The translations under genes and the position numbers were made by a program. Source: a virus (Duplodnaviria; Heunggongvirae; Uroviricota; Caudoviricetes). From it: a DNA stretch of 18,212 nt. Below, piece after piece: positions 1-18,212 of this stretch. The DNA lies in the IMG/VR virus record IMGVR_UViG_2617271087_000009. The stretch is one strand, 5' to 3'. The number at the start of each line of letters is the position of its first letter. The stretch's first letter is position 1. The notes under the pieces are model-generated. The model had not been told where the DNA came from. It made no database searches and worked only from the letters and a program-made list of their open reading frames with translations.

Positions 1-1014
1 TTACTCTACTGTGGACACTGTGTGGACACTCTCGGCTTCAGTACCACCTCTTAGCGGATTAAGAGAAATGGCGTCCTGAAGGTACTCTGGCGCAAAATGA
101 GCGTAAACCATAGTTTGCTCAATCCGCGTGTGACCTAGTATCCGTTGTAGCGTGATAATACTTCCTCCATTAATCATGAAATGAGTGGCAAAGCTGTGCC
201 TTAGTGCATGTGTGGCTTGCCCCGTTGGCAAATCCGGTTTTATTGCTTTCATTGTTCGTCTGAAGCGAGGGTAATCAGCATCAGGGAATAAAAAACCTCG
301 TTTGTTATCCGCGATCATTTTGGCAACAGCCTCTGAGATCGGGACGGTGCGTGGTTTGTTTGTTTTCGTTTTAACAAACGTGACGCGGTTATGGATGATA
401 TTTTCTGCTTTCAAACGAGCTGCTTCTCCCCAACGTGCTCCTGTACTCAGGCAAAGAATCGCAATCTTTTTGTTGTCGCCGTCAAGTGCTGCAAGCAGTA
501 AGGCAATTTCTTCCTGTGTGAGATAGCCTGTTTCTGGTTTTTCCTCCTTAAGCCTCTTTGTCCCTCTGATAGGGTGCTCACCAAAGAATAACTCCGCTTC
601 AATCAGGGCTGTAAACATGCCGCTAATACATGTTAAATCACGATTGATACTCGAAGGTTTAATACCCTGACTTCTTCGGGTGGCGCAGTACTGGCTGATA
701 AGGGATTTCGTGATTTGAAATGCGCATGGGTCATTCGTTATTTTTGTGAAGATTTCAATTTTTCCAAGATTAGATTTCCCATGCTCTTCGTGTTTACCCT
801 TTAAATCCCACCAGATCTGTGTCAGTTCCGACAGACGTCGTTTGTCTGTTGGTTTTGATAGCCATTCTTTATTGTGGTGGTTGTACAACGTGTATTTTTC
901 GAAAGCGACAGCTTCGCTTTTCTTATCAAACTTCCTACGGATGCGTTTTCCGTTACGTCCAGTAGGGCGGATGTCCACTTCATATCGACCATCATCGAGT
1001 TTTTTGATTGCCAT
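1..1014 (-). CDS. int: Tyrosine integrase, P2 Int-like (337 aa)
   Basis: Minus-strand ORF 1..1092; internal Met at 1012-1014 gives 337 aa, the P2 Int length, beginning MAIKKLDDGRYEV. C-terminal HxxR...Y recombinase-type residues (ATHALRHSFATH ... MVYAH). Lies next to the divergent repressor/cox pair. Confidence 0.9.
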   Translation of the reverse strand: MAIKKLDDGRYEVDIRPTGRNGKRIRRKFDKKSEAVAFEKYTLYNHHNKEWLSKPTDKRRLSELTQIWWDLKGKHEEHGKSNLGKIEIFTKITNDPCAFQITKSLISQYCATRRSQGIKPSSINRDLTCISGMFTALIEAELFFGEHPIRGTKRLKEEKPETGYLTQEEIALLLAALDGDNKKIAILCLSTGARWGEAARLKAENIIHNRVTFVKTKTNKPRTVPISEAVAKMIADNKRGFLFPDADYPRFRRTMKAIKPDLPTGQATHALRHSFATHFMINGGSIITLQRILGHTRIEQTMVYAHFAPEYLQDAISLNPLRGGTEAESVHTVSTVE

Positions 1015-1069
1015 CAGAAAACCCTCCGAGTGGTACTTTTTTTTTGCTACTACTAATCGCTTTTTTCGT

Positions 1070-1090
1070 GGTGGCTGAAATTTAGCCACC
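1070..1090. other. Perfect 7-bp stem / 7-nt loop hairpin (GGTGGCT-GAAATTT-AGCCACC) in the C-int intergenic region
   Basis: Inverted repeat read directly. No U-tract follows on either strand, so not a canonical intrinsic terminator; possibly a protein-binding or int-regulatory element. Confidence 0.3.
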
Positions 1091-1130
1091 AATAGTAGGC
1101 ACTTGTGATGAATATATTCACGATAAATTG

Positions 1131-1430
1131 TTAACCAGTCTTTTGACCGGAGTGGGGCGACGTTGTTTCGTTTTGCCCAAAGTGTGCGAGAGCGGGCGCA
1201 ATTTGCCCGGCTTCTGGAGCTACCTGATCAGTCATGAACCACAAAGTATATTTAGTAAATCTGGGATGTTGTAAGACCTTCATTATGGCTTCAACTCCAG
1301 CGTTTTTTGACCGGCTCTCATAGCTCGAAAGTGAGCTGTAGGCTACACCAGTTAATTCACTGAATTCTTTACGGTTTAACCTTTCAGATTCACGGATTAG
1401 CTTCAACTTCTCCGAAACGTCTATTGACAT
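1131..1430 (-). CDS. C: Immunity repressor, P2 C-like (99 aa), Xre-type HTH
   Basis: ORF 1131..1502; Met at 1428-1430 gives 99 aa. C-terminal half (FTKYTLWFMTDQVAPEAGQIAPALAHFGQNETTSPHSGQKTG) matches my recollection of P2 C; N-terminal HTH region looks diverged. Position between int and cox on the opposite strand to cox. Confidence 0.85.
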   Translation of the reverse strand: MSIDVSEKLKLIRESERLNRKEFSELTGVAYSSLSSYESRSKNAGVEAIMKVLQHPRFTKYTLWFMTDQVAPEAGQIAPALAHFGQNETTSPHSGQKTG

Positions 1431-1551
1431 AATTACTCCGATTGCGTAATTTCTTGCTGATAGTGTGAAATGTTGTGCTTCTGGAGTTATCCTTTTAGGC
1501 AATAATTAGCCATTAGGAGCCATTAGAAGCACTAAGGGAGAATCGTAGCAG
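1431..1551. promoter_or_regulatory. Lysis/lysogeny switch region (Pe/Pc promoters and operators expected); direct repeats AGCCATTAG at 1508-1516 and 1518-1526
   Basis: Intergenic region between divergent C and cox. In P2/186 the face-to-face promoters and repressor operators lie here. The two 9-bp direct repeats are read directly; I could not place -10/-35 elements confidently. Confidence 0.4.
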
Positions 1552-1827
1552 ATGAATAGACAGCTTGTAAGCGTGACTGATGCCGTGCCTTATCAGGAGT
1601 TTGCAAAACTCATTGGTAAAACTCCAAGAGCTGTAAGGGGCATGATTGAGAAAGGGAAATTACCAGTTATTGAGATTACTGACCCTCAGTCAGTATCGGG
1701 GCGTGCTGGTGAATATTGGGTATACCTTCCGGCATGGAATAACGGACTAAAACTGGCTTATGAAAGCCGTCCTAAAGAGATTCGTGACGGCTGGTTGATG
1801 TGGTTAGGTCTCGGTGAACCACGTTAA
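1552..1827 (+). CDS. cox: Cox (excisionase / early-promoter repressor), 91 aa
   Basis: 91-aa ORF, same length as P2 Cox; sequence AVPYQEFAKLIGK...GRAGEYWVYLPAWNNGLKLAYESRPKEIRDGWLMWLGLGEPR matches P2 Cox from memory. Confidence 0.9.
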   Translation: MNRQLVSVTDAVPYQEFAKLIGKTPRAVRGMIEKGKLPVIEITDPQSVSGRAGEYWVYLPAWNNGLKLAYESRPKEIRDGWLMWLGLGEPR

Positions 1828-1837
1828 GGAGAACCGT

Positions 1838-2008
1838 ATGAATGAGCCTCGTTGTATTGCTCAGTTATTGCGTAACGAAAGCCCCAGGGCGATTGACTTC
1901 ACCATCACCCACGGTAAGGGGCGTAAGGGAATCATTATCCGCACCAAAAAACAGAGTCCGTTAAAAAAGGCTCTGACCTTTCTGAAAAGCCGGAGGGTCT
2001 GGAAATGA
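1838..2008 (+). CDS. Small early hypothetical protein (P2 orf78 position)
   Basis: ATG at 1838 preceded by AAGGAG at 1826-1831; stop overlaps the B start (ATGA at 2005-2008). The ORF track's 1814 start is a GTG with no better RBS. Confidence 0.5.
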   Translation: MNEPRCIAQLLRNESPRAIDFTITHGKGRKGIIIRTKKQSPLKKALTFLKSRRVWK

Positions 2009-2505
2009 CAGTGATGACGCTCAATCTCGTTGAAAAACAGCCAGCAGCTATGCGCCGGATAATTGGTAAGCATCTGGCCGTCCCTCGCTGGCAGGAGACA
2101 TGCGATTATTATAATCAGATGATGGAACGCGAACGGCTAACGGTTTGCTTCCATGCGCAGTTAAAACAGCGTCACGCAACGATGCGTTTTGAAGAAATGA
2201 ACGACGTCGAACGTGAACGGCTGGTTTGTGCAATTGATGAACTGCGTGGGGCATTCTCAAAACGCCGTCAGGTCGGTGCAAGTGAGTATGCATATATTAG
2301 CTTTTTAACTGTCAGTCAGCGCCGTACTTTATTTATGCATGCCGGATTGACTGAAAAAGAATTCAACCAGCCATACTGGCGAATTAATGAAGAATCATGT
2401 TACTGGCGTGATGCCTTATTCCGTGCATTACGTGAATTATTCAGCCTGTTTGAGTATGCACCGACAATTCTGACGTCGGTAAAACCAGAGCAATATCTGC
2501 ATTAA
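2005..2505 (+). CDS. B: Replication protein B (166 aa)
   Basis: 166-aa ORF equal to P2 gpB length, in the conserved position after cox/orf78; start overlaps the upstream stop. Confidence 0.85.
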   Translation: MTVMTLNLVEKQPAAMRRIIGKHLAVPRWQETCDYYNQMMERERLTVCFHAQLKQRHATMRFEEMNDVERERLVCAIDELRGAFSKRRQVGASEYAYISFLTVSQRRTLFMHAGLTEKEFNQPYWRINEESCYWRDALFRALRELFSLFEYAPTILTSVKPEQYLH

Positions 2506-3319: not shown

Positions 3320-3597
3320 GTATTCGTATTGAAATTGGCGAGCGTTATGTCGTCACAAATGACCGTTTTCAGTTCATTTTGCAGGAGAGAAAGACCGCTG
3401 AAACCGGGAAGAATGCCGGTAAAGAGTGGCTGGATGTTGTCGGCTATTACCCCAAATTAAACCAGCTCGTTTCCGGTCTGATCCATCACGATATTTTGAG
3501 CGGTAACGCTGTCTCTTTTGAGGCGCTGAGCTCTCAGGTTGAGCAGCTCGGTCAGCAGTGTCTGACTGCGTTTCTCTGTGCGGGGAAATCTAAATGA
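3316..3597 (+). CDS. Small early hypothetical protein (P2 orf83 position)
   Basis: 93-aa ORF; ATG at 3316 overlaps the upstream stop (ATGA); GGAGA RBS at 3306-3310. Confidence 0.6.
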   Translation: MSIRIEIGERYVVTNDRFQFILQERKTAETGKNAGKEWLDVVGYYPKLNQLVSGLIHHDILSGNAVSFEALSSQVEQLGQQCLTAFLCAGKSK

Positions 3598-4602
3598 TAG
3601 TTGATACCCGCTGCCGAGCTGAAAGCTCTATCAATATTATTTCTGTTTCTGGCGGAAAGGATAGCCTTGCTCAATGGCTTGTTGGTATTGAAAGCGGTGT
3701 GCATTTTTTTGCCGGTTTTTGCAGACACCGGGCATGAGCATCCGCAGACAATGGAGTATCTCGATTATCTGGAGAACCGACTCGGGCCGGTTAAACGGGT
3801 TAAAGCTGACTTCTCCCGACAGATTGAAGGTAAGCGCAAGTTTATTGCTGAGAAATGGCCTGTTTCTCTGGTTGAAGAGTGCGGAATGTCTCCGGGGGAA
3901 GCGGCAGAGCGCATCAATTGTGCGCTGGAAATTCTCAAGCCTACTGGTATCCCATTTCTTGATTTGTGCATGTGGAAAGGGCGATTTCCTTCCACTAAAG
4001 CCAGATTTTGCACTTTTGACCTTAAACATGAGCCAGTACGTACTCAGGTCGTGTTACCTGCGCTTAATGAGTTTGATGAGGTAATTAGCTGGCAGGGGAT
4101 TCGCGCTCAGGAGTCTCCTGCGCGCGCGGGTCTGCCTGCCTGGGAAGAGGATGCGGACAATACGCCCGGGCTCCATGTATACCGTCCTATTCTGAACTGG
4201 ACGCATGAGGAGGTATTTGCATTTGCAAGACGTCATGGAATTAAACCTAATCCGTTATACCAGCAGGGATGCAGTCGTGTCGGTTGTATGCCCTGCATCC
4301 ACGCCAGAAAGTCTGAATTAGCTGAAATTTTTAGTCGCTGGCCGGAAGAGGTTAAGCGTGTTGCGGAATGGGAGCGACTTGTCGCCGCATGCTCCAGACG
4401 CGGAAATTCTACTTTCTTCCCGTCAACTCATGACCCGCGTCGTGCGGAACGCCGCATTGATATTATTACTGTCGATGCTTACGGAATTGAGTCTTATCGT
4501 GACTGGGCGATGACCACGCGTGGCGGGGCACAGTTTGATTTGCTGGCTTCGGTGAATGATAAGTCAGTTTGCAGTAGTGTCTATGCCGGTGTATGTGAAT
4601 GA
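3594..4602 (+). pseudogene. PAPS reductase / DndC-like PP-loop protein with Cys cluster, interrupted by a +1 frameshift in a T7 run (3704-3710); possibly a sequencing error
   Basis: Frame 0 from ATG 3594 (overlapping the orf83 stop) encodes MIVDTRCRAESSINIISVSGGKDSLAQWLVGIESGVHFF and stops at 3735-3737. Frame +1 continues FLPVFADTGHEHPQTMEY... to 4602. SGGKDS followed about 25 residues later by DTG...P.T is the PAPS-reductase family signature, but here it is split across frames. Removing one T from the T7 run restores one ORF of about 335 aa. C-terminal GCSRVGCMPC cysteine cluster. Confidence 0.7.
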
Positions 4603-6884
4603 GTCATTCTTTCCAGGAGCAATACACCTGCGTACCTCCGTCAGCATTTGCTGCAGGCACCGGTAAGGCGTTTACCGGTGCTTATGCATGGAACGCGCCA
4701 CGCGAGGCCGTCGGGCGCGAAAGACCCCTTACACGTGACGAGATGCGTCAGGTGCAAGGTGTTTTATCCACGATTAACCGCCTGCCTTACTTTTTGCGCT
4801 CGCTGTTTACTTCACGCTATGACTACATCCGGCGCAATAAAAGCCCGGTGCACGGGTTTTATTTCCTCACATCTACTTTTCAGCGTCGTTTATGGCCGCG
4901 CATTGAGCGCGTGAATCAGCGCCATGAAATGAACACCGACGCGTCGTTGCTATTTCTGGCAGAGCGTGACCACTATGCGCGCCTGCCTGGAATGAATGAC
5001 AAGGAGCTGAAAAAGTTTGCCGCCCGTATCTCATCGCAGCTTTTCATGATGTATGAGGAACTCTGCGATGCATGGGTTGATGCACATGGCGAAAAAGAAT
5101 CGCTGTTTACGGATGAGGCGCAGACTCACCTGTATGGTCATGTTGCTGGCGCTGCACGTGCTTTCAATATTTCCCCGCTCTACTGGAAAAAATACCGTAA
5201 AGGACAGATAACCACGAGGCAGGCATATTCTGCCATTGCCCGTCTGTTTAACGATGAGTGGTGGACTCATCAGCTTAAAGGCCAGCGTATGCGCTGGCAT
5301 GAGGCGTTACTGATTGCTGTCGGGGAGGTCAATAAAGACCGTTCTCCTTATGCCAGTAAACATGCCATTCGTGATGTGCGTGCGCGCCGCCAGGCAAATC
5401 TGGAGTTTCTTAAATCGTGTGACCTTGAAAACAGGGAAACCGGCGAACGCATCGACCTTATCAGTAAGGTGATGGGCAGTATTTCTAATCCTGAAATTCG
5501 CCGGATGGAGCTGATGAACACCATTGCCGGTATTGAGCGTTACGCCGCCGCAGAGGGTGATGTGGGGATGTTTATCACGCTGACCGCGCCGTCAAAGTAT
5601 CACCCGACACGTCAGGTCGGAAAAGGCGAAAGTAAAACCGTTCAGCTTAATCACGGCTGGAACGATGAGGCATTTAATCCAAAGGATGCGCAGCGTTATC
5701 TCTGCCGTATCTGGAGCCTGATGCGCACGGCATTCAAGGATAATGATTTACAGGTCTACGGTTTGCGAGTCGTCGAGCCACACCACGACGGAACGCCGCA
5801 CTGGCATATGATGCTTTTTTGTAATCCACGCCAGCGTAACCAGATTATTGAAATCATGCGTCGCTACGCGCTCAAAGAGGATGGCGACGAAAGAGGAGCT
5901 GCGCGAAACCGTTTTCAGGCAAAACACCTTAACCGGGGCGGTGCTGCAGGGTATATCGCGAAATACATCTCAAAAAACATCGATGGCTATGCACTGGATG
6001 GTCAGCTCGATAACGATACCGGCAGGCCGCTGAAAGACACTGCCGCGGCTGTTACCGCATGGGCGTCAACGTGGCGCATTCCGCAATTTAAAACGGTTGG
6101 CCTGCCGACAATGGGGGCTTACCGTGAACTACGCAAATTGCCTCGCGGCGTCAGCATTGCTGATGAGTTTGACGAGCGCGTCGAGGCTGCACGCGCCGCT
6201 GCAGACAGTGGTGATTTTGCGTTGTATATCAGCGCGCAGGGCGGGGCAAATGTCCCGCGCGATTGTCAGACTGTCAGGGTCGCCCGTAGCCCGTCGGATG
6301 ACGTTAACGAGTACGAGGAAGAAGTCGAGAGAGTGGTCGGCATTTACGCGCCGCATCTCGGCGCGCGTCATATTCATATCACCAGAACGACGGACTGGCG
6401 CATTGTTCCGAAAGTGCCGGTCGTTGAGCCTTTGACTTTAAAAAGCGGCATCGCCGCGCCTCGGAGTCCTGTCAATAACTGTGGAAAGCTCACCGGTGGT
6501 GATACTTCGTTACCGGCTCCCACACCTTCTGAGCACGCCGCAGCAGTGCTTAATCTGGTAGATGACGGTGTTATCGAATGGAATGACCCGGAGGTCGTGA
6601 GGGCGCTCAGAGGTGCATTAAAACACGGCCTGAGAAGACCAAACCGTCAGCAAAGAAACGGAAGCCCGTTAAAACCGCATGAAATAGCGCCATCGGCCAG
6701 ACTGACCCGGTCTGAACGATTGCAAATCACCCGTATCCGCGTTGACCTTGCTCAGAACGGTATCAGGCCGCAGCGATGGGAGCTTGAGGCGCTGGCGCGT
6801 GGCGCGACCGTAAATTATGACGGGAAAAAATTCACGTATCCGGTCGCTGATGAGTGGTCGGGATTCTGGCATCAATTTGAGTAA
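4599..6884 (+). CDS. A: Replication initiation protein A (rolling-circle HUH endonuclease), 761 aa
   Basis: 761 aa equals P2 gpA length; HUH-like motif (GTPHWHMMLF) and tyrosine-containing active-site region (GYIAKYISKNIDGY); start overlaps the upstream stop (ATGA). Confidence 0.9.
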   Translation: MSHSFQEQYTCVPPSAFAAGTGKAFTGAYAWNAPREAVGRERPLTRDEMRQVQGVLSTINRLPYFLRSLFTSRYDYIRRNKSPVHGFYFLTSTFQRRLWPRIERVNQRHEMNTDASLLFLAERDHYARLPGMNDKELKKFAARISSQLFMMYEELCDAWVDAHGEKESLFTDEAQTHLYGHVAGAARAFNISPLYWKKYRKGQITTRQAYSAIARLFNDEWWTHQLKGQRMRWHEALLIAVGEVNKDRSPYASKHAIRDVRARRQANLEFLKSCDLENRETGERIDLISKVMGSISNPEIRRMELMNTIAGIERYAAAEGDVGMFITLTAPSKYHPTRQVGKGESKTVQLNHGWNDEAFNPKDAQRYLCRIWSLMRTAFKDNDLQVYGLRVVEPHHDGTPHWHMMLFCNPRQRNQIIEIMRRYALKEDGDERGAARNRFQAKHLNRGGAAGYIAKYISKNIDGYALDGQLDNDTGRPLKDTAAAVTAWASTWRIPQFKTVGLPTMGAYRELRKLPRGVSIADEFDERVEAARAAADSGDFALYISAQGGANVPRDCQTVRVARSPSDDVNEYEEEVERVVGIYAPHLGARHIHITRTTDWRIVPKVPVVEPLTLKSGIAAPRSPVNNCGKLTGGDTSLPAPTPSEHAAAVLNLVDDGVIEWNDPEVVRALRGALKHGLRRPNRQQRNGSPLKPHEIAPSARLTRSERLQITRIRVDLAQNGIRPQRWELEALARGATVNYDGKKFTYPVADEWSGFWHQFE
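6456..6475 (+). other. Candidate origin / A-protein nick region inside the A coding sequence
   Basis: GCGCCTCGGAGTCCTGTCAA matches my recollection of the P2 ori sequence, which is known to lie within the 3' part of gene A. Recall-based, not computed. Confidence 0.4.
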
Positions 6885-6973
6885 GGATCTCATCTATACA
6901 GTATAAGTAGTTTTGACTGTAATTGATTGTTTTTTATATGGTTGCATGCATTAAATCTACGTCAATATCATTA

Positions 6974-6982
6974 TGTTATAAT
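6974..6982 (+). promoter_or_regulatory. Extended -10 promoter element (TGtTATAAT) upstream of the cargo operon
   Basis: TG-n-TATAAT read directly at 6974-6982, about 29 nt upstream of the ATG at 7011 with GGAGA RBS at 7001-7005; AT-rich context; no good -35. Confidence 0.45.
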
Positions 6983-7010
6983 GCATTACTTAAAAATGTT
7001 GGAGATAAAA

Positions 7011-7202
7011 ATGTTAAAGCCTGCAGATGTTGTTTGTTTGAAAAGCGGTGGATTTAAAATGACTGTATCTGACTCTACTGAAACTCATGCTAAATGTATT
7101 TGGCATGATAAAGAAGGAGTTTTGCACGAGGAGTCATTCTCCATTGATTTACTGGAAATAGCAGAGAGTAAAAGTGGTATGCTTTGTCGTCCACGTAAGT
7201 GA
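7011..7202 (+). CDS. Small protein (63 aa), YodC/DUF2158-like, first gene of the cargo island
   Basis: ATG at 7011 with GGAGA RBS. The pattern V.LKSGG.KMTV ... C.W.D ... F recalls the DUF2158 (YodC) small-protein family, from memory only. AT-rich codon usage unlike the flanking phage genes. Confidence 0.6.
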   Translation: MLKPADVVCLKSGGFKMTVSDSTETHAKCIWHDKEGVLHEESFSIDLLEIAESKSGMLCRPRK

Positions 7203-7229
7203 ATCATAATAAAATTCACGGGGGAAAGT

Positions 7230-7910
7230 ATGAAACAATACAGCGAATTAGAAAACAATGTTAAGAGATTCATTGTTGAGCATGAAAAAGGGATTTCTAT
7301 TGATGATATTCATCATAAGTTCCGGATGAAGGATGGTCAGAATCGCAAGATGGCAGATTATCTTATTGATAATAAAAAGATAATTTTGGAGATGAAAAGT
7401 CTTTTTTCTGACAGGGTCAAGAATGTCAATGATAAACTGAATGAGTTGGTTAAAACTGATAATTGGCTTGCAAAAAACTGGCATGGTGCTATTCATTTAG
7501 AAGAGTTGATAAAAAGACACCCAGACTCAAAGCGATTTAGAAATGATATAATGAACTTTGCTTATGAAAATATTAAAACAAAGATAGTTAAGGAAGCTAA
7601 TAAGCAAATAAATGCAACAAAGGATGTTTTGGATTTAAATGACTCGATTGGCGGGTTGATTTTGTTAAATGATAATGTCTTTTCACATGAGTCTAATTAT
7701 TTGTCAGATGAAATATTATATTTGCTAGGCACAAAGAGATATTCGAGTGTTGAGTTTGTGGTTTATATTGCAAAATTGATTGATAAACAGGTTGATGTTT
7801 GTGTGCTACTTGACAGTCAATCTAAAAATAAAAATTATATTGAATGGTATATGAATAATGTTTTTTTATTGAACTGGGCGTCTTTTAATAAATATGCAAT
7901 AAAGATGTAG
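7230..7910 (+). CDS. Hypothetical protein (226 aa), cargo gene of unknown function
   Basis: ATG at 7230 with GGGGGAAAG RBS, 27 nt after the upstream stop, so probably co-transcribed. K/N/E-rich, AT-rich; no motif I recognise, no predicted transmembrane segment. Confidence 0.7.
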   Translation: MKQYSELENNVKRFIVEHEKGISIDDIHHKFRMKDGQNRKMADYLIDNKKIILEMKSLFSDRVKNVNDKLNELVKTDNWLAKNWHGAIHLEELIKRHPDSKRFRNDIMNFAYENIKTKIVKEANKQINATKDVLDLNDSIGGLILLNDNVFSHESNYLSDEILYLLGTKRYSSVEFVVYIAKLIDKQVDVCVLLDSQSKNKNYIEWYMNNVFLLNWASFNKYAIKM

Positions 7911-8163
7911 TGGTGTGGATGGATATGAAATGAGTCAACCAAGATGCACCTTGGTCAGTAATCTCATGTGAGATACCACATATAACACCAAAAGTGTCAG
8001 GTTGATGGCCATTGTTCACCGTTTACAGCAGATTATGGTCAACGAAAATCTGACGCCTGACGAGCTGGTCGGGTGTGCCGAAATAGTCTGGGATAATTAC
8101 GGGCGGTTTAACTATATCGGTCAGTCCAGAGTTGCGCCACCACCACGCAGACGATAGAGAACG

Positions 8164-8197
8164 CCGCCAGTCGTGAAACTTGTTTTCAGGCTGGCGG
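8164..8197 (-). terminator. Possible weak intrinsic terminator for the 313-aa cargo gene
   Basis: CCGCCAG ... CTGGCGG 7-bp GC-rich stem with a long structured loop, about 33 nt downstream of the minus-strand stop, followed on the minus strand by CGUUCUCUAUCG (only moderately U-rich). Confidence 0.3.
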
Positions 8198-8229
8198 AGT
8201 TGAACAACGAGCGAAGTGAGGCGTTAGCA

Positions 8230-9409: not shown

Positions 9410-9428
9410 GGCGAGGCGGGGAAAGCAC
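9410..9428. other. cos: cos site (19-nt cohesive-end sequence GGCGAGGCGGGGAAAGCAC)
   Basis: Exact match to my recollection of the P2/P4 19-nt cohesive end, in the expected position downstream of Q and adjacent to the tin/old-equivalent locus. Confidence 0.55.
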
Positions 9429-9562
9429 TGCGCGCTGGCGGTGGTGCTGATTTTATTTTTTCAGCGTCTCAGCGCGTCGTGATGGCATTTAGTCGGCCTG
9501 CTGGGGCGTTGGTGTGTCTGCGGGGTGTTTTGTGCGGTGGTGAGGGCGTGATGACGGGATGT

Positions 9563-9584
9563 AAAAAAGCCGCCCGCAGGCGGC
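9563..9584 (-). terminator. Rho-independent terminator after Q
   Basis: Minus strand reads GCCGCC-UGCG-GGCGGC followed by UUUUUU, starting 5 nt after the Q stop codon. Confidence 0.65.
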
Positions 9585-9589
9585 GATGT

Positions 9590-10624: not shown

Positions 10625-12395
10625 CAGTAAAACTCCAGAATGGTGGATGTCAGCGGGGTGCTGATACCGGCGGTGAGTGGCTCATTTAACAGGGCGTGCA
10701 TGGTCGCCCAGGCGAGGTCGGCGTGGCTGGCTTCCTCGCTGCGACTGGCCTCATAGGTGGCGCTGCGTCCGCTGCTGGTCATGGTCTTGCGGATAGCCAT
10801 AAACGAGCTGGTGATGTCGGTGGCGCTGACGTCATATTCCAGACAGCCACGGCGGATAACGTCTTTTGCCTTGAGCACCATTGCGGTTTTCATTTCCGGT
10901 GTGTAGCGGATATCGCGCGCGGCGGGATAGAACGAGCGCACGAGCTGGAACACGCCGACACCGAGGCCGGTGGCATCAATACCGATGTATTCGACGTTAT
11001 ATTTTTCGGTGAGTTTGCGGATGGATTCAGCCTGGGTGGCAAAGTCCATGCCTTTCCACTGGTGACGCTCAAGTATCCTGAATTTGCCACCGGCCACCAC
11101 CGGCGGTGCCAGCACCACGCATCCGGCGCTGTCGCCACGGTGTGACGGGTCGTAACCAATCCATACCGGGCGGGAGCCGAACGGATTGGCGGCAAACGGT
11201 GCATAGTCTTCCCATTCTTCCAGCGTGTCGACCATGCAGCGTTGCAGCTCCTCGAACGGGAACACCGATGCCTTGTCGTCAACAAATTCACACATGAACA
11301 GGTTTTTAAAATCGTCGGCGCTGTTTTCGCGTTTGAGCTGCTCAATGTCGAACAGTGTGCAGCCACCTTTCAGGGCGTCCTCAATGGTGACAATCTGCCG
11401 CCACTGGCCGTCCGCACAGAGAAGCCCACCGGCAAGGGCGTTATGACTGACGTCGATTTCCACACGTTCGGCGGCGCTGGCGCGTCCCCGGTTGAACAGT
11501 TCACCCGACCAGAACGGGTAGCGTCGTGCGCCAGTGTGGACGGGGTGGAGAAATAGGTCGAGCGCAGGTGACTCTGTGAGGCCATACCTGATGCCACCTT
11601 ACGCAGAACCTGAAAATTTGGGATCCAGAAAATCTCGTCGACGTACAGGTCACCGTTATGGCTCTGTGCGGTGTTGGAGTTGGTGCCGAGAAAAATCAGT
11701 TTTGCGCCGTTATTGCCCAGGACAATCGGGTCACCGGTCAGGTCAACGTCAACCAGACGGGCAAAGGCGATGATGTATTCACGGAACACATACGCCTGCG
11801 TTTTACTGGCCGACAGAAAAATCTGGTTATGACCGGTTTTCAGGGCGCGCAGCAGCGCCTCGCGGGAAAAATAAAATGTCGCGCCAATCTGGCGGGATTT
11901 CAGGATATCGCGGATGCGGTGCTCAAGCCCGGCGCGATACCAGTGCAACTGATAGTCGAAAGACTGCTCAAAGAAAATCTGCTCCAGCTTTTCGATAGCC
12001 TCGTCACTGAAAAAATTCTTTTTCGGTTTGCGCCGCCCGCCTTTGTTGCGGTTAGCGACGTTCGGATTAAGGTCTGCCTCGTTGCCGGTCTGGCTGTAGC
12101 GGTTTACCCGTGCCAGTCGTTCAATCTGGCGTCCGAGCAGGTCAATTTCCTTGAAGTCACCGCCGGTTTTCTGCGGTTTGATAATGAGCTGGGTCAGCCG
12201 CGCTTCCAGACTCATTTCGACACGGCTGATGGGGGCAACGCTGTCCCAGCCGTCGCGCTGTTTCCAGCTCTGCACCGTCGGGCGTTTCATCTGCAACATG
12301 GCGGCAATCTGCGGCACGGAAAACCCCTGCCAGTACAGCAGCGCCGCCTGACGACGCGGGTCGTGTAAAAGAGTGGTGTCTGTGGTGATGGTCAT
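10624..12395 (-). pseudogene. P: Terminase large (ATPase) subunit P, split by an apparent 1-nt deletion near 11515-11530; possibly a sequencing error
   Basis: N-terminal part from ATG 12393-12395 (MTITTDTTLLHDPRR...) runs in one frame to a stop at 11370. The C-terminal part (…YPFWSGELFNRGRASAAERVEIDVSHNALAGG…) is in another frame that is open from 11598 to the stop at 10624-10626. The coding span is 1769 nt, one short of the 1770 needed for the 590-aa P2 gpP. Sensible protein sequence switches frames at about AHDA|YPFW. Confidence 0.8.
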
Positions 12396-12568: not shown

Positions 12569-13423
12569 ATGGCAAAAAAAGTCTCAAAATTCTTTCGTAT
12601 CGGCGTTGAGGGTGACACCTGTGACGGGCGTGTCATCAGTGCGCAGGATATTCAGGAAATGGCCGAAACCTTTGACCCGCGAGTCTATGGTTGCCGCATT
12701 AACCTGGAACATCTGCGCGGCATCCTGCCTGACGGTATTTTTAAGCGTTATGGCGATGTGGTCGAACTGAAGGCCGAAAAGATTGACGATGATTCGGCGC
12801 TGAAAGGCAAATGGGCGCTGTTTGCGAAAATCACCCCGACCGATGACCTTATCGCGATGAACAAGGCCGCGCAGAAGGTCTACACCTCAATGGAAATTCA
12901 GCCGAACTTTGCCAACACCGGCAAATGTTATCTGGTGGGGCTGGCCGTCACCGATGACCCGGCAAGCCTCGGCACGGAATACCTGGAATTCTGCCGCACG
13001 GCAAAACACAACCCTCTGAACCGCTTCAAATTAAGCCCTGAAAACCTGATTTCAGTGGCAACGCCCGTTGAGCTGGAATTTGAAGACCTGCCTGAAACCG
13101 TGTTCACCGCCCTGACCGAAAAGGTGAAATCCATTTTTGGCCGCAAACAGGCCAGCGATGACGCCCGTCTGAATGACGTGCATGAAGCGGTGACCGCTGT
13201 TGCTGAACATGTGCAGGAAAAACTGAGCGCCACTGAGCAGCGCCTCGCTGAGATGGAAACCGCCTTTTCCGCACTTAAGCAGGCGGTGACTGACAGGGCG
13301 GATGAAACCAGCCAGGCATTCACCCGCCTGAAAAACAGTCTCGACCACACCGAAAGTCTGACCCAGCAGCGCCGCAGCAAGGCCACCGGTGGTGGCGGTG
13401 ACGGCCTGATGACGAACTGCTGA
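12569..13423 (+). CDS. O: Capsid scaffold protein O (284 aa)
   Basis: Internal ATG at 12569 (MAKKVSKFFRIGVEGDTCDGRV...) gives 284 aa, the P2 gpO length; coiled-coil-like C-terminus. Confidence 0.9.
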   Translation: MAKKVSKFFRIGVEGDTCDGRVISAQDIQEMAETFDPRVYGCRINLEHLRGILPDGIFKRYGDVVELKAEKIDDDSALKGKWALFAKITPTDDLIAMNKAAQKVYTSMEIQPNFANTGKCYLVGLAVTDDPASLGTEYLEFCRTAKHNPLNRFKLSPENLISVATPVELEFEDLPETVFTALTEKVKSIFGRKQASDDARLNDVHEAVTAVAEHVQEKLSATEQRLAEMETAFSALKQAVTDRADETSQAFTRLKNSLDHTESLTQQRRSKATGGGGDGLMTNC

Positions 13424-13481
13424 CCGGCGTCAGTCAGTCCGGGAAAACCTTCACGATTAACCCTTAATTTCAGGAAAAACT

Positions 13482-14555
13482 ATGCGCCAGGAAACCCGCT
13501 TTAAATTTAATGCTTACCTGTCCCGTGTTGCCGAACTGAACGGCATTGATGCCGGTGATGTGTCGAAAAAATTCACTGTTGAACCGTCGGTCACCCAGAC
13601 CCTGATGAACACCATGCAGGAGTCCTCTGACTTTCTGACCCGCATCAACATTGTGCCGGTCAGCGAAATGAAAGGGGAAAAAATTGGTATTGGTGTCACC
13701 GGCTCCATCGCCAGCACCACCGACACCGCCGGTGGCACCGAGCGTCAGCCGAAGGACTTCTCGAAGCTGGCGTCAAACAAGTACGAATGCGACCAGATTA
13801 ACTTCGATTTTTATATCCGCTACAAAACGCTGGACCTGTGGGCGCGTTATCAGGATTTCCAGCTCCGTATCCGTAACGCCATTATCAAACGCCAGTCCCT
13901 TGATTTCATCATGGCCGGTTTTAACGGCGTGAAGCGTGCCGAAACCTCTGACCGCAGCAGCAATCCGATGCTGCAGGATGTGGCGGTCGGCTGGCTGCAG
14001 AAATACCGCAATGAAGCCCCGGCTCGCGTGATGAGCAAGGTCACTGACGAGGAAGGCAGCACCACCTCTGAGGTCATCCGCGTGGGTAAGGGCGGTGATT
14101 ATGCCAGCCTCGATGCACTGGTGATGGATGCGACCAACAACCTGATTGAGCCGTGGTATCAGGAAGACCCTGACCTTGTGGTGATTGTGGGGCGTCAGCT
14201 ACTGGCGGACAAGTATTTCCCCATCGTCAACAGGGAGCAGGATAACAGCGAAATGCTGGCTGCTGACGTCATCATCAGCCAGAAACGCATCGGTAACCTG
14301 CCAGCGGTACGCGTCCCGTACTTCCCGGCGGATGCGATGCTCATCACGAAGCTGGAAAACCTGTCTATCTACTACATGGATGACAGCCATCGCCGCGTGA
14401 TTGTGGAAAACCCGAAACTCGACCGCGTGGAGAACTACGAGTCAATGAACATTGATTACGTGGTGGAAGACTACGCCGCCGGTTGTCTGGTGGAAAAAAT
14501 CAAGGTCGGTGATTTCTCCACACCGGCTAAGGCGACCGCAGAGCCGGGAGCGTAA
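13482..14555 (+). CDS. N: Major capsid protein N (357 aa)
   Basis: 357 aa equals P2 gpN length; conserved position after O. Confidence 0.9.
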   Translation: MRQETRFKFNAYLSRVAELNGIDAGDVSKKFTVEPSVTQTLMNTMQESSDFLTRINIVPVSEMKGEKIGIGVTGSIASTTDTAGGTERQPKDFSKLASNKYECDQINFDFYIRYKTLDLWARYQDFQLRIRNAIIKRQSLDFIMAGFNGVKRAETSDRSSNPMLQDVAVGWLQKYRNEAPARVMSKVTDEEGSTTSEVIRVGKGGDYASLDALVMDATNNLIEPWYQEDPDLVVIVGRQLLADKYFPIVNREQDNSEMLAADVIISQKRIGNLPAVRVPYFPADAMLITKLENLSIYYMDDSHRRVIVENPKLDRVENYESMNIDYVVEDYAAGCLVEKIKVGDFSTPAKATAEPGA

Positions 14556-14558
14556 CCG

Positions 14559-15302
14559 ATGACGAGTCCCGCACAGCGCCACATGATGCGGGTCTCGGCA
14601 GCGATGACCGCGCAGCGGGAAGCCGCCCCGCTGCGACATGCAACTGTCTATGAGCAGATGCTGGTCAAGCTGGCCGCAGACCAGCGCACACTGAAAGCGA
14701 TTTATTCAAAAGAGCTTAAGGCCGCGAAAAAGCGCGAACTGCTGCCGTTCTGGTTGCCGTGGGTGAACGGTGTGCTGGAGCAGGGCAAAGGTGCACAGGA
14801 TGACATTCTGATGACGGTCATGCTGTGGCGTCTGGATACCGGCGATATTGCCGGTGCGCTGGAGATTGCCCGTTATGCCCTGAAGTACGGTCTGACCATG
14901 CCGGGTAAACACCGCCGCACCCCGCCGTACATGTTCACCGAGGAGGTCGCACTCGCGGCCATGCGTGCCCACGCTGCCGGTGAATCTGTGGATATCCGCC
15001 TGCTGACGGAGACCCTTGAACTGACCGCCACGGCTGACATGCCTGATGAAGTGCGCGCAAAGCTGCACAAAATCACCGGTCTGTTTCTGCGTGACGCTGG
15101 TGATGCCGCCGGTGCGCTGGCTCACCTGCAACGTGCGACACAGCTCGACTGTCAGGCAGGCGTCAAAAAAGAGATTGAACGACTGGAGCGGGAGCTGAAA
15201 CCGAAGCCGGAGCCGCAGCCCAAAGCGGTCACCCGCGCCCCGCGTAAGACCCGGAGCGTGACACCGGCAAAACGTGGACGCCCGAAAAAGAAAGCCAGTT
15301 AA
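14559..15302 (+). CDS. M: Terminase small (endonuclease) subunit M (247 aa)
   Basis: 247 aa equals P2 gpM length; basic C-terminal tail (RKTRSVTPAKRGRPKKKAS). Confidence 0.9.
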   Translation: MTSPAQRHMMRVSAAMTAQREAAPLRHATVYEQMLVKLAADQRTLKAIYSKELKAAKKRELLPFWLPWVNGVLEQGKGAQDDILMTVMLWRLDTGDIAGALEIARYALKYGLTMPGKHRRTPPYMFTEEVALAAMRAHAAGESVDIRLLTETLELTATADMPDEVRAKLHKITGLFLRDAGDAAGALAHLQRATQLDCQAGVKKEIERLERELKPKPEPQPKAVTRAPRKTRSVTPAKRGRPKKKAS

Positions 15303-15401
15303 CAACCGAATGCGCCCCGCGCCAGGGCGGCACGCCGGTCAGTGAGGGTGAATCACCTGACACTGCACCGGCGTCCACCGCCCGACTTTTCAGAGGTAGT
15401 C

Positions 15402-15911
15402 ATGATGACGCTGATTATTCCGCGAAAGGAGGCTCCCGTGTCCGGTGAGGGTACGGTGGTCATCCCGCAACCGGCAGGCGACGAGCCGGTGATTAAAAAC
15501 ACGTTCTTTTTTCCCGATATCGACCCGAAGCGCGTCCGGGAACGTATGCGCCTTGAGCAGACCGTCGCCCCCGCCCGTCTGCGTGAGGCCATCAAGTCAG
15601 GCATGGCGGAGACGAATGCGGAGCTGTACGAGTACCGCGAACAGAAAATTGCCGCCGGTTTTACGCGTCTGGCGGACGTTCCGGCGGACGACATCGACGG
15701 TGAAAGCATCAAAGTTTTTTACTACGAGCGCGCCGTGTGTGCGATGGCGACCGCGTCGCTTTATGAGCGTTATCGCGGCGTGGATGCCAGTGCGAAAGGC
15801 GACAAGAAGGCCGACAGCATTGACAGCACCATTGATGAACTGTGGCGGGATATGCGCTGGGCGGTGGCGCGTATCCAGGACAAGCCGCGCTGCATCGTGA
15901 GTCAAATCTGA
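15402..15911 (+). CDS. L: Capsid completion protein L (169 aa)
   Basis: ATG at 15402 (MMTLIIPRKEAP...) gives 169 aa, the P2 gpL length; AGAGG RBS at 15392-15396. Confidence 0.85.
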   Translation: MMTLIIPRKEAPVSGEGTVVIPQPAGDEPVIKNTFFFPDIDPKRVRERMRLEQTVAPARLREAIKSGMAETNAELYEYREQKIAAGFTRLADVPADDIDGESIKVFYYERAVCAMATASLYERYRGVDASAKGDKKADSIDSTIDELWRDMRWAVARIQDKPRCIVSQI

Positions 15912-16114
15912 TGAAGACCTTTGCGCTACAGGGTGACACGCTCGACGCCATTTGTGTCCGGTATTACGGGCGCACTGAGGGCGTGGTTGAGACCGTGCTC
16001 GCCGCAAATCCGGGACTGGCTGAACTGGGTGCGGTGCTGCCACACGGCACCGCCGTCGAACTGCCCGACGTTCAGACCGCGCCCGTGGCTGAAACTGTCA
16101 ATCTGTGGGAGTAA
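15911..16114 (+). CDS. X: Tail protein X (67 aa)
   Basis: MKTFALQGDTLDAICVRYYGRTEGVVETVLAANPGL... is 67 aa, the P2 gpX length; start overlaps the L stop (TGATGA). Confidence 0.85.
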   Translation: MKTFALQGDTLDAICVRYYGRTEGVVETVLAANPGLAELGAVLPHGTAVELPDVQTAPVAETVNLWE

Positions 16115-16117
16115 CGC

Positions 16118-16411
16118 ATGACAGCAGAAGAAAAAAGCGTCCTGTCGCTTTTCATGATTGGGGTGCTGATTGTTGTCGGCAAGGTGCTTGCCGGTGGTGA
16201 ACCCATCACCCCGCGTCTGTTTATCGGGCGCATGTTGCTCGGCGGTTTTGTCTCGATGGTTGCCGGTGTTGTTCTGGTGCAGTTTCCTGACCTGTCACTG
16301 CCTGCGGTGTGCGGCATCGGTTCCATGCTGGGTATCGCCGGTTATCAGGTGATTGAGATTGCCATTCAGCGCCGCTTTAAGGCAGGGGGAAACCGTAATG
16401 CCGGTAATTAA
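16118..16411 (+). CDS. Y: Holin Y
   Basis: 97-aa hydrophobic protein with transmembrane-like stretches (LSLFMIGVLIVVGKVLAGG; FVSMVAGVVLVQF) and a charged C-terminus; GGGAG RBS; first gene of the lysis cassette. Confidence 0.85.
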   Translation: MTAEEKSVLSLFMIGVLIVVGKVLAGGEPITPRLFIGRMLLGGFVSMVAGVVLVQFPDLSLPAVCGIGSMLGIAGYQVIEIAIQRRFKAGGNRNAGN

Positions 16412-16895
16412 CACGCATCAGAATATCGCCGCCTTTCTCGACATGCTGGCCGTGTCCGAAGGGACGGCGAATCATCCGCTGACGAAAAACCGGGGCTATG
16501 ACGTGATAGTCACCGGACTGGACGGAAAGCCGGAAATTTTCACCGACTACAGTGACCACCCGTTCGCGCATGGCCGACCGGCGAAGGTGTTTAACCGTCG
16601 CGGTGAAAAATCCACGGCCTCCGGTCGCTATCAGCAGCTTTACCTGTTCTGGCCGCACTACCGCAAACAGCTTGCCCTGCCGGATTTCAGTCCGTTGTCA
16701 CAGGACAGGCTCGCCATTCAGTTGATCCGCGAACGCGGTGCACTGGATGACATCCGGGCGGGACGCATTGAGCGCGCCATTTCACGCTGTCGCAATATCT
16801 GGGCGTCCCTGCCGGGTGCCGGTTACGGTCAGCGTGAGCATTCACTGGAAAAACTGGTCACCGTCTGGCGTACCGCCGGCGGCGTACCGGCTTAA
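16398..16895 (+). CDS. K: Endolysin K (165 aa)
   Basis: ATG at 16398 (MPVINTHQNIAAFLDMLAVSEGT...) gives 165 aa, the P2 gpK length; AGGGGGA RBS; overlaps the Y 3' end. Confidence 0.85.
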   Translation: MPVINTHQNIAAFLDMLAVSEGTANHPLTKNRGYDVIVTGLDGKPEIFTDYSDHPFAHGRPAKVFNRRGEKSTASGRYQQLYLFWPHYRKQLALPDFSPLSQDRLAIQLIRERGALDDIRAGRIERAISRCRNIWASLPGAGYGQREHSLEKLVTVWRTAGGVPA

Positions 16896-16909
16896 ACGGA
16901 GTAAACACC

Positions 16910-17335
16910 ATGAAGAAATTATCCCTTTCACTGATGCTGAACGTGTCGCTGGCGCTGATGCTGGCACTGTCCCTGATTTACCCGCAGAGCGTGGCCGTCA
17001 GTTTTGTCGCCACCTGGGCGATTCTGGCGACGGTTATCTGTGTGGTTGCCGGTGGTGTCGGCGTGTATGCCACGGAGTATGTGCTGGAACGCTACGGGCG
17101 GGAGCTGCCGCCGGAATCGCTGGCCGTGAAGATTGTCACGTCGCTGTTTTTGCAGCCGGTGCCGTGGCGCAGACGGGCGGCGGCTCTGGTGGTGATGGTG
17201 GCGACGTTTATCTCGCTGGTCGCTGCCGGGTGGATTTTTACTGCGCTGATTTACCTCGTGGCGTCGGTGTTCTTCCGGCTGATACGTACGGCCTGCCGTC
17301 AGCGTTTTGAGGGGCGGGAACCATGTCAAAGCTGA
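16910..17335 (+). CDS. lysA: LysA (141 aa), membrane protein modulating lysis timing
   Basis: 141-aa multi-TM hydrophobic protein in the P2 lysA position; GGAG RBS. Confidence 0.8.
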   Translation: MKKLSLSLMLNVSLALMLALSLIYPQSVAVSFVATWAILATVICVVAGGVGVYATEYVLERYGRELPPESLAVKIVTSLFLQPVPWRRRAAALVVMVATFISLVAAGWIFTALIYLVASVFFRLIRTACRQRFEGREPCQS

Positions 17336-17748
17336 TGATTGTACTGGTTGTGTTGTTATCGCTGGCGGTGGCGGGGCTGTTTCTGGTGAAACATAAAAAT
17401 GCCAGCCTGCGCGCCTCGCTGGACAGGGCGAACAACGTCGCCAGCGGGCAGCAGACGACTATCACCATGCTGAAAAATCAGCTTCATGTTGCCCTCACCA
17501 GAGCAGACAAAAACGAGCTGGCGCAGGTGGTACTGCGTCAGGAACTGGAGAACGCCGCGAAGCGTGAAGCACAGCGCGAGAAAACCATCACGAGGTTACT
17601 CAATGAAAACGAAGATTTTCGCCGCTGGTACGGCGCTGACCTGCCTGATGTTGTGCGCCGGTTGCACCAGCGTCCGGCCTGCACCGACGCCAGTGATTGT
17701 CGCCAACGCCTGCCCGAAAGTGAGCCTTTGCCCGATGCCGGGCAGTGA
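17323..17748 (+). CDS. lysB: LysB (141 aa), Rz-like i-spanin
   Basis: N-terminal TM segment (MIVLVVLLSLAVAGLFLV) followed by a charged helical periplasmic domain; overlaps the lysA 3' end. Confidence 0.8.
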   Translation: MSKLMIVLVVLLSLAVAGLFLVKHKNASLRASLDRANNVASGQQTTITMLKNQLHVALTRADKNELAQVVLRQELENAAKREAQREKTITRLLNENEDFRRWYGADLPDVVRRLHQRPACTDASDCRQRLPESEPLPDAGQ

Positions 17749-17875
17749 CCCGCAGACGAACGGCGATTTAAGTGCTGATATCCGGCAGCTTGAGAACGCG
17801 CTGGCACGCTGTGCCAGCCAGGTAAAAATGATTAAACACTGTCAGGACGAAAACGATGCTTGCGTATTACCGTGA
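17603..17875 (+). CDS. lysC: LysC (90 aa), Rz1-like o-spanin lipoprotein, overlapping lysB in the +1 frame
   Basis: ATG at 17603 with GAGGT RBS; signal peptide plus lipobox (LMLCAGC); Pro-rich mature region; begins inside lysB and extends past it. Confidence 0.7.
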   Translation: MKTKIFAAGTALTCLMLCAGCTSVRPAPTPVIVANACPKVSLCPMPGSDPQTNGDLSADIRQLENALARCASQVKMIKHCQDENDACVLP

Positions 17876-18212
17876 AGGAGATCGGTGAGTAACATCGATG
17901 GAGATCGGTTCGTGTCACTTTCACAGAACCGTTTTTAAATTACCTTCACTGATCTCCTTCGGTCAACGGAGATTGTATTTTCCGCATTGATTCTCCTTTA
18001 AGTTCGATCTTGATACTGCCATGAACCAGTCGATCTAGGATGGCATCCGCATGTGTGGAGTCTCCGATCATTTTGTACCAGTTTTCCACCGGCAACTGGC
18101 TCACTACGATGATTGAGCCTCGTTGGTACATCAGATCCACTATTTCCAGCAGGTCGCTACGCTGTTCTGATGAGAGAGGTTCCAGCCCCCAGTCATCCAG
18201 AAGCAGCAGATC
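17876..18212 (-). mobile_element. IS21-family insertion sequence, right end; continues beyond the window
   Basis: Contains the istB 3' end. The 70 bp between the lysC stop and the istB stop carries repeated motifs (GGAGATCGGT at 17877-17886 and 17900-17909, and an inverted GGAGATCAG copy at about 17947-17958), typical of multi-repeat IS21 termini. The exact boundary is not determined. Confidence 0.65.
17946..18212 (-). CDS. istB: IstB (IS21-family transposition helper ATPase), C-terminal part; N-terminus off-window
   Basis: Minus-strand translation from the window edge: DLLLLDDWGLEPLSSEQRSDLLEIVDLMYQRGSIIVVSQLPVENWYKMIGDSTHADAILDRLVHGSIKIELKGESMRK... This carries the Walker B (hhhhDD) region and conserved C-terminus of IstB. 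The track's 64-aa ORF is only the tail. Confidence 0.8.
   Translation of the reverse strand, partial: DLLLLDDWGLEPLSSEQRSDLLEIVDLMYQRGSIIVVSQLPVENWYKMIGDSTHADAILDRLVHGSIKIELKGESMRKIQSPLTEGDQ

Follow-up and report, generated by a model that had tools for sequence, protein, structure and literature searches.

A probably defective P2-like prophage with full-length hotspot cargo at a rare attachment site in Escherichia coli

The stretch of DNA analyzed here, referred to as the window, is 18,212 nt long and closes the 320-kb draft contig CBWH010000002.1 (GCA_000529975.1), position 18212 being the end of the contig. Its first 17.9 kb are the left part of a P2-like (Peduovirus) prophage, and the remaining 352 bp belong to ISEc12. 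Peduovirus genomes share 96-98% identity with the window, and its genes follow the order found in P2-like phages (int-C-cox-B-...-A-hotspot-cos-Q-P / O-N-M-L-X-Y-K-lysA-lysB-lysC-R). The Pfam domains detected include Phage_GPA, Phage_portal, Terminase_6N/6C, Phage_GPO_N, Phage_cap_P2, Phage_term_smal, Phage_GPL and Phage_Cox, all from the P2 family. The P2 cos 19-mer has an exact match adjoining Q (9410-9428), where 0.01 matches were expected by chance. These results bore out the original prediction of a P2-like prophage. Phage P2 itself (Peduovirus P2) shares the gene order, the cos 19-mer and the att core, and is 96.5% identical over the shared genes. Unlike the window, P2 carries tin and old in the hotspot in place of ORF226 and ORF313, is without the PAPS-reductase-like gene described below, and has a different C/cox immunity type.

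The P2-type tyrosine integrase gene (1..1014, minus strand, 337 aa) is intact and its product is identical to WP_000985261.1 of E. coli strain 4/0; the exact protein was present in 19,988 blocks of the searched sequence collection. Between int and C there is a non-coding run of nine T (1029..1037) that has eight T in 4/0, a 1-bp insertion. The genes for the immunity repressor C (1131..1430, minus strand, 99 aa), Cox (1552..1827, plus strand, 91 aa), replication protein B (2005..2505, plus strand, 166 aa, PF26815) and replication endonuclease A (4599..6884, plus strand, 761 aa) are also intact, and the immunity type of C is unlike that of SW070912 (dS 0.97). An accessory early gene coding for a PAPS-reductase/DndC-like protein (3594..4602, plus strand) is a pseudogene, in which an extra T in a T7 run (3704-3710) splits the SGGKDS PP-loop from the remaining protein. 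This frameshift is common to the window, 4/0 and the prophage of JJ2434, and the gene is absent from the more distant prophages of E1 and A_5. The expectation that the integrase, immunity, early and replication genes and the cargo would all be intact was therefore correct only in part: the int, C, cox, B, A and cargo ORFs are full length and their products identical to the 4/0 proteins except for one substitution in ORF226, but the PAPS-reductase-like gene is frameshifted.

The variable gpA-gpQ (cos-proximal) hotspot (6885..9589) has a low G+C content (31-45%) and holds cargo of the P2-EC67 type. This hotspot is a known variable site and a reservoir of defence genes (PMC9122126). The four cargo ORFs are full length. 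They code for a DUF2158 small protein (7011..7202, plus strand, 63 aa; PF09926, E = 4.7e-8), ORF226 (7230..7910, plus strand), a 51-aa product (8002..8157, plus strand) in a segment conserved across many P2-like hotspots, and ORF313 (8230..9171, minus strand). The PGAP name given to the 51-aa ORF, 'meiotically up-regulated 80', is spurious. ORF226 has a probable PD-(D/E)xK nuclease fold and carries in the window the substitution S78N (A for G at 7462), at a variable column. ORF313 combines an N-terminal beta-rich domain with a probable C-terminal HEPN-like domain that includes an Rx4-6H motif (R246-N247-x3-H251-E252), whose four named residues do not vary among 44 sequences with identities as low as 44%. 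The one HEPN hint from databases was a single UniRef name, 'Apea-like HEPN'; none of the 44 members matched a curated HEPN profile in Pfam, and a Foldseek search of ORF313 against the PDB returned nothing significant. Sequence-profile searches of Pfam, PADLOC and the PDB had no match for ORF226 or ORF313, and none of the PADLOC-DB 2.0 profiles (E up to 0.1) matched these two proteins, the DUF2158 protein or the 51-aa ORF. In PHROGs, ORF226 and ORF313 fall only in families of unknown function, and literature searches on P2-EC67, the protein accessions and the assembly accession returned nothing relevant.

The same cargo set and arrangement is found in the TO-region of P2-EC67 (AM157369: ORF73, ORF226, ORF313; ECOR67), which is 92.8% identical over 93% of the island. 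In that element ORF313 has diverged from the window copy (dS 0.42, omega 0.28), and ORF226 is nearly identical (7 differences). IncFII-type plasmids of Pantoea also carry ORF226, and a genomic island of P. aeruginosa carries ORF313. ORF313 further occurs in P2-like phage records from Yersinia; in vB_YpM_46 and VB-YPM-4 it is 98.7% identical, and the hosts given there are strains of Y. pestis. Each gene is found elsewhere without the other, and a single two-gene system was rejected on this ground. The record vB_EcoM-720R8 was rejected as an isolated phage with this cargo, since the host genes and the split capsid gene in it mark it as a predicted prophage. ORF226 is probably a PD-(D/E)xK nuclease and ORF313 probably a HEPN protein. 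As for their roles, we tentatively regard the PD-(D/E)xK-like nuclease and the beta-domain, HEPN-like RNase as two independent, uncharacterized single-gene modules for anti-phage defence or inter-element competition, a proposal that has slightly less than an even chance of being right.

Downstream of the hotspot, the portal gene Q (9590..10624, minus strand, 344 aa) is intact. The gene for the terminase ATPase P (10624..12395, minus strand) lacks one G at position 11520 (codon 292) relative to 4/0, GG having become G, and the 590-aa terminase is broken into a 341-aa N-terminal and a 279-aa C-terminal ORF. The frameshift in P that had been noticed previously is thus present in the sequence. The genes for O (scaffold), N (capsid), M (small terminase) and L (head completion) (12569..15911, plus strand) are all identical to those of 4/0 and are followed by the gene for tail protein X (15911..16114, plus strand). 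Holin Y (16118..16411, plus strand) has 97 aa in the window and 93 aa in 4/0, a consequence of a GGG to GG change at 16380 that the original prediction did not mention. The 97-aa allele was present on at least 24 further contigs; in the six that were compared, divergence is about 2% and R, S and V are called downstream. On these grounds the deletion was rejected as a third lesion; it is probably a natural variant that other P2-like prophages share. The endolysin gene K, lysA and lysB (16398..17748, plus strand) are intact. The next gene, lysC (17648..17860, plus strand), has lost its last 11 codons to the insertion sequence, and only the first 5 nt of the tail completion gene R (17856-17860) precede the junction.

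The remaining 352 bp (17861..18212, minus strand) are the terminal segment of ISEc12, an IS21-family element, and include the 3′ part of istB, a partial ORF with an IstB_IS21 domain. The istB-side end of ISEc12 is matched without a difference over all 352 nt, and the terminal repeat corresponds to that of the other IS end, though only one end of the element lies in the window. The join at 17860/17861 coincides with the exact ISEc12 terminus, 5 nt into R and inside lysC. The IS21-family insertion was thus confirmed and named, but the claim that it interrupts the late operon is indistinguishable from truncation, because the IS sits at the contig end with a single junction visible; istA, the second junction and the target duplication fall outside the contig. 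The genes from R to ogr likewise lie beyond the window and the contig, and a larger IS-mediated deletion is therefore possible. Other P2-like prophages also have ISEc12 insertions: SW070912 has one downstream of S, and in OHT76-1 and VE-V10-F the element lies close to the R/S genes. The phage/IS junction of the window had no match in any other complete genome. ST131 genomes match the window at 5-8 places each, which we read as the prophage plus additional ISEc12 copies.

Over positions 1-17860 the window is 99.98% identical to prophages in E. coli 4/0, Ecol_656, 736 and NR1441 (ST131). Four differences separate it from 4/0 in these 17,860 bp, one substitution and three 1-bp indels (T8 to T9, GGG to GG, and GG to G). 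The one substitution changes an amino acid of a cargo protein (ORF226 S78N). These four prophages and that of JJ2434, which together span 99.6-99.98% identity, share with the window the immunity region, the frameshifted PAPS-reductase gene and the cargo. Unlike the window, they are located at another chromosomal site, yegR, and have an intact 590-aa P, a 93-aa holin and no ISEc12 in lysC/R. The structural genes of 4/0 are annotated as intact through gene D, where the examined stretch of 4/0 ends, and its late genes R through D are present. Against domestication, cargo-bearing prophages elsewhere are intact over the window region: the JJ2434 prophage (99.6% identity) has the same cargo and is intact over the window region, and so are P, Q, O, N, M, L, X, Y, K and lysAB of E1 and A_5, which also carry it. 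In exact-protein look-ups across 153 billion gene positions, which would miss assemblies with other gene calls, the P fragment, the lysC'-IS fusion ORF and ORF226 S78N were each found on the source contig only.

In the source contig the prophage adjoins gsiD, its attachment site being gsiD-pdeI. The near-identical prophages sit instead at yegR, with the P2 locI core. Of the 27 nt of the P2 core, 18 are matched by the attL of the source contig and 15 by the empty attB, against 26-27 at the yegR site. P2 integrates at more than 10 sites and tolerates core mismatches (PMC3931495). A P2-type integrase next to gsiD was present in one of 5,426 complete genomes, where it belongs to a different phage. 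The chromosomal flank is identical to that of 4/0 at 2,688 of 2,688 bp, and the gsiD-pdeI site of 4/0 is empty; this dates the integration as very recent and the lesions as later still. The source genome may also have a copy at yegR. A better example of real decay is provided by strain 203740, with truncated A and H at the same gsiD site.

The explanation that we favor with reasonable confidence is that a Peduovirus prophage integrated recently at a rare site and was then disabled, its cargo being intact as the normal load of the phage with little time elapsed. A P2-like temperate phage would have entered the secondary site gsiD/pdeI of an E. coli with the same flank as ST131 strain 4/0, and ISEc12 would have transposed into lysC/R afterwards. 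The insertion would take R, and probably S by polarity, off the O-operon transcript; we infer both this polarity and the order of events. If the base call is right, the 1-bp deletion would part the ATPase from the nuclease domain of terminase P. ORF226 (nuclease-like) and ORF313 (HEPN-like) would represent the usual cargo of a working phage lineage, and since almost no time has elapsed, selective sparing is not needed to explain their integrity. The prophage is probably defective, with two inactivating lesions in lytic or virion genes, the frameshift in P, which may be a sequencing error, and ISEc12 in lysC/R.

A serious competitor, to which we assign roughly one chance in three, is that the 2013-era draft assembly introduced the single-base differences, the P frameshift among them, leaving the ISEc12 insertion as the one real lesion. 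Three of the four differences from 4/0 are 1-bp indels in short runs, a pattern that real mutation seldom gives but that is typical of errors in draft assemblies, and the P lesion may therefore not exist. The indel to substitution ratio of 3:1, the location of every indel in a mononucleotide run, the draft WGS origin of the contig and the absence of the P fragment elsewhere are all consistent with this explanation. However, no indels separate the 2,688-bp flank from 4/0, although only about 0.45 would be expected at an equal rate; the P deletion sits in a run of just two G; and the holin variant is a genuine allele elsewhere.

The original prediction went further and proposed that virion genes are decaying in a domesticated prophage while selection holds the hotspot cargo, which would be the reason the locus persists. 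The concept of defective prophage remnants that keep genes was reportedly set out by Bobay et al. in 2014. Packaging, lysis and tail genes do carry lesions next to full-length cargo ORFs, and ORF313 shows long-term purifying selection with respect to P2-EC67. The hotspot's standing as a defence-gene reservoir points the same way, and one section of a published report describes defective P2 elements that keep near-identical defence genes (PMC13586616, section 29). Like the window, the remnants in that section combine mobility or virion lesions with intact hotspot genes, but they are degraded, and here there are at most two lesions, in one assembly, after a very recent integration. Domestication is nevertheless unlikely here. 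The lesions are private to one assembly, the intact twins differ at 4 of 17,860 positions, and the element is new at gsiD-pdeI, a site unoccupied in 4/0 despite the identical flank. No defective element vertically inherited at gsiD-pdeI was found, the lesion ORFs being confined to one contig. A 2.7-kb island would escape 2-3 random lesions in 17.86 kb with a probability of 0.61-0.72, within a wider range of 0.6-0.8. The sole substitution is a non-synonymous change in the cargo, and an accessory early gene, the PAPS-reductase-like one, is already a pseudogene. Relaxed selection on the structural genes was not found either: their omega against a 4%-diverged relative is 0.03-0.14, a value of strong purifying selection and the history of a working phage, and that of the cargo is 0.17-0.28. 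The intact accessory genes of this prophage show nothing about selection or domestication; the evolutionary half of the earlier description was not supported, and its account of a P2-like, probably defective prophage with full-length gpA-gpQ cargo stands.

That the prophage is undamaged, the indels being errors and the IS an assembly chimera, is very improbable: the IS does close the contig, and repeats are where assemblers break, but the join falls at the exact ISEc12 terminus with 352 bp at 100% identity, which a random chimera would not give, and ISEc12 is inserted in other P2-like prophages (SW070912, OHT76-1 and VE-V10-F).

P2-like prophages and their gpA-gpQ hotspot are already documented, as are defective remnants in which hotspot genes are retained. 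The present case is a caution that a frameshift and an IS beside intact cargo in a single draft contig do not demonstrate domestication. Near-identical intact copies, a different attachment site and the privacy of the lesions point to an element that is newly arrived and either newly broken or partly mis-sequenced. The lead worth keeping is the cargo itself, ORF226 and ORF313, which was sequenced in the mid-2000s as P2-EC67 and resembles two nuclease-type modules.

The integrase-first, inward-reading organization of the window, as determined from the ORF map, composition and similarity searches, is that of a P2-like (Peduovirus) prophage. A total of 168 phage records matched the window in the similarity search, the genes shared with P2-type genomes were 96.5–97.8% identical, and the P2 cos 19-mer was present as an exact match at 9410–9428. 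Positions 1–17860 were 99.98% identical to the prophage in the complete genomes of the Escherichia coli ST131 strains 4/0, Ecol_656, 736 and NR1441; for the prophage of strain JJ2434 the identity was 99.6%. In the RefSeq annotation of 4/0 the early genes follow the order int, C, cox, orf, B, DUF2732, DUF5405, TraR, DUF5405, PAPS-reductase-like and A; then come the four cargo ORFs, Q, P, O, N, M, L, X, Y and K, and finally lysA, lysB, lysC and R before the prophage continues on to D. By every feature tested, the element belongs with the P2-like phages. Phages of this type are not known to be SOS-inducible, which makes mitomycin a weak means of probing function. The record ON470606 ('Escherichia phage vB_EcoM-720R8', 15423–16486) includes host yegS and yegR, both att cores and a major capsid gene that is split. 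We rejected this record as an isolated virion genome because these features mark it as a predicted prophage region.

The window and the 4/0 prophage differ at four positions. These are an extra T at 1037 (T8 to T9) in the non-coding interval between int and C; A for G at 7462, which causes S78N at a variable alignment column of the cargo protein ORF226; the loss of one G at 11520 (GG to G) in the terminase gene P; and the loss of one G at 16380 (GGG to GG) in the holin gene Y, six codons from its end. The original prediction of a frameshifted P was borne out: the deletion at 11520 is a true frameshift at codon 292, after which the Terminase_5/6N domains remain in a 341-aa fragment and Terminase_6C falls in a separate ORF. 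Of the eight other loci with the same integrase, P was called in seven; in all of these, and likewise in four annotated relatives, its product has 590 aa. The change at 16380 was rejected as damage and is taken as a natural allele, since at least 24 further contigs encode its 97-aa product; comparison of six of them showed P2-like prophages at about 2% divergence from this one, in which R, S and V were called downstream. The 93-aa and 97-aa holin alleles (window 16118–16411) are one G apart in a G-run near the 3′-end, and each occurs in P2-like prophages whose late genes were called further downstream. This G-run suggests a site that is prone to slippage yet tolerated.

Of the four differences from 4/0, three are one-base indels that fall in mononucleotide runs; the source is a draft assembly. 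Substitutions usually dominate real divergence. The chromosomal flank contained no indels in 2,688 bp, with about 0.45 expected at the same rate. We consider a sequencing or assembly error in P somewhat unlikely, if by no means negligible. An artefact is a far less ready explanation for the insertion sequence junction. Positions 17861–18212 match the istB-side end of ISEc12, an IS21 family element, at 100% identity, and the last of these is the final base of the source contig (CBWH010000002.1 of assembly GCA_000529975.1, 320,873 bp), which was identified by an exact-protein look-up. The join falls at the exact ISEc12 terminus, and a 28-nt stretch matches the opposite-end inverted repeat of an ISEc12 copy. 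The insertion point is 5 nt inside the tail-completion gene R and 11 codons short of the end of lysC, and 17860/17861 is therefore a real transposition junction. The IS21-family element of the original prediction was confirmed as an ISEc12 end; the contig stops inside the element, so the state of the remaining prophage is out of view. The same phage/IS junction was found in none of the complete E. coli genomes. In the more distant P2-like prophage of E. coli SW070912 (23230–25765), ISEc12 was located in the second variable region, past gene S on its downstream side. For OHT76-1 and VE-V10-F, the match takes in R and S and places an ISEc12 end no more than about 0.6 kb from lysB/lysC. Insertions of ISEc12 into P2-like prophages have occurred more than once and at various positions.

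The early genes had also been predicted to be intact, which proved wrong for the PAPS-reductase/DndC/SspD/BrxP-like accessory gene of the early operon (3594–4602, upstream of A), a pseudogene. The frameshift comes from an extra T in the T7 run at 3704–3710 and cuts off the SGGKDS PP-loop, which is read in the frame of the ATG at 3594, from the remaining protein. The annotations of 4/0 and JJ2434 show the same pseudogene; the gene is intact in SW070912, where it might serve in anti-defence or DNA modification, and it is absent from the P2-like prophages of strains E1 and A_5.

The prophage sits between gsiD and pdeI, at an intergenic site with only a weak version of the P2 core; the usual site is yegR/locI. 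Upstream of int the source contig continues into gsiB-gsiC-gsiD, while in 4/0 and the other relatives the prophage adjoins yegR instead. The yegR site of loci with the same integrase has the exact 27-nt P2 core, known in the literature as the locI core (PMC3931495). The attL of the source contig, GGTTAAAAAGCCGCAGCAAGGGAGATT, matches the P2 core at 18 of 27 positions, and the counterpart of the gsiD site in 4/0 is empty and matches at 15 of 27. The gsi flanks of the source contig and 4/0 are identical over 2,688 bp, with zero mismatches or gaps. One phage, one substitution apart, at two different sites in chromosomes that share an identical gsi flank points to a very recent integration, which would have been that of a working phage. 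The lesions would be later than the integration and would block further spread. When exact proteins were looked up in a collection of 153 billion gene positions, three ORFs were confined to the source contig: the 341-aa P fragment, the 46-aa lysC′-IS fusion ORF and the ORF226 S78N variant. Among 5,426 complete genomes, only that of strain 203740 has a P2-type integrase next to gsiD, and it belongs to a different phage. That P2-like prophage (21073–41601) shows real decay: replication gene A is without its C-terminus, beside swapped cargo (DUF4325 and others), and an ISVsa5 element interrupts the tail-fibre gene H.

The original prediction held that a decaying prophage was being domesticated while selection kept its cargo. 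The retention of near-identical defence genes by defective P2 elements has already been published (PMC13586616). Vertical persistence and differential selection, which would mark a domesticated element of that kind, are both lacking at this locus. Comparison with SW070912 (about 4% diverged) gave omega values of 0.03–0.14 for structural and early genes and 0.37 for lysA, the latter from six differences only, with no sign of relaxed selection on the structural genes. Against P2-EC67, the equivalent region from ECOR67, omega was 0.28 for ORF313 (dS 0.42) and 0.17 for ORF226 (seven differences). Judged by these substitution patterns, structural and cargo genes both have the history of functional phage genes. 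Lesions falling at random in 17,860 bp would miss the 2,705-bp cargo island with P = 0.72 for two lesions and 0.61 for three, and the cargo coding sequence alone with P = 0.79 and 0.70, respectively. In the cargo-bearing prophages of 4/0, JJ2434, E1 and A_5, the genes of the region are annotated as intact except for the PAPS-reductase pseudogene. The comparison proposed with the original prediction, of cargo presence with structural integrity and selection, came out against domestication at this locus. The element is an ordinary prophage, recently acquired, recently disabled and possibly in part mis-sequenced.

The cargo island occupies the cos-proximal gpA-gpQ hotspot (PMC9122126). In P2 this is the position of tin and old, and elsewhere that of many defence systems. 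Loci with the same integrase have SIR2, DUF4238, AAA_13 or methyltransferase cargo in this position. The cargo of the window is of the P2-EC67 type, whose deposited ORFs are ORF73, ORF226 and ORF313, and is complete in 27 of 5,426 genomes. Within it, a segment of about 260 bp with a 51-aa ORF (7970–8227) is kept at about 91% in P2, Wphi and many further P2-like hotspots whose cargo is unrelated, and may be a recombination anchor for cargo swapping; the PGAP name of this ORF, 'meiotically up-regulated 80 protein', is clearly spurious.

The ORF313 family ranges across the Gammaproteobacteria, and its invariant residues R246, N247, H251 and E252 form an Rx4H motif. The assignment of ORF313 to HEPN proteins is only probable, since no Foldseek or Pfam match was found and the motif lies in a low-confidence loop of the AlphaFold model (mean pLDDT 82.6). 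ORF226 is restricted to Enterobacterales (Escherichia, Salmonella, Citrobacter and Pantoea), and its invariant D43, E54 and K56 are at or on adjacent strands. The PADLOC profile search returned no match for either protein. ORF226 was found without ORF313 on Pantoea IncFII-type plasmids, and ORF313 without ORF226 in a P. aeruginosa island and in Yersinia P2-like phage records; since they occur apart, they are independent modules. The genomic island that carries the P. aeruginosa homologue also has, at a distance of about 3 kb from it, a gene for an OLD/GajA-like AAA-TOPRIM ATPase, with DUF932 nearby and, in one locus, ParB_N genes, a context compatible with a defence island. The function of the cargo genes ORF226 and ORF313 is the only lead worth keeping from this locus.
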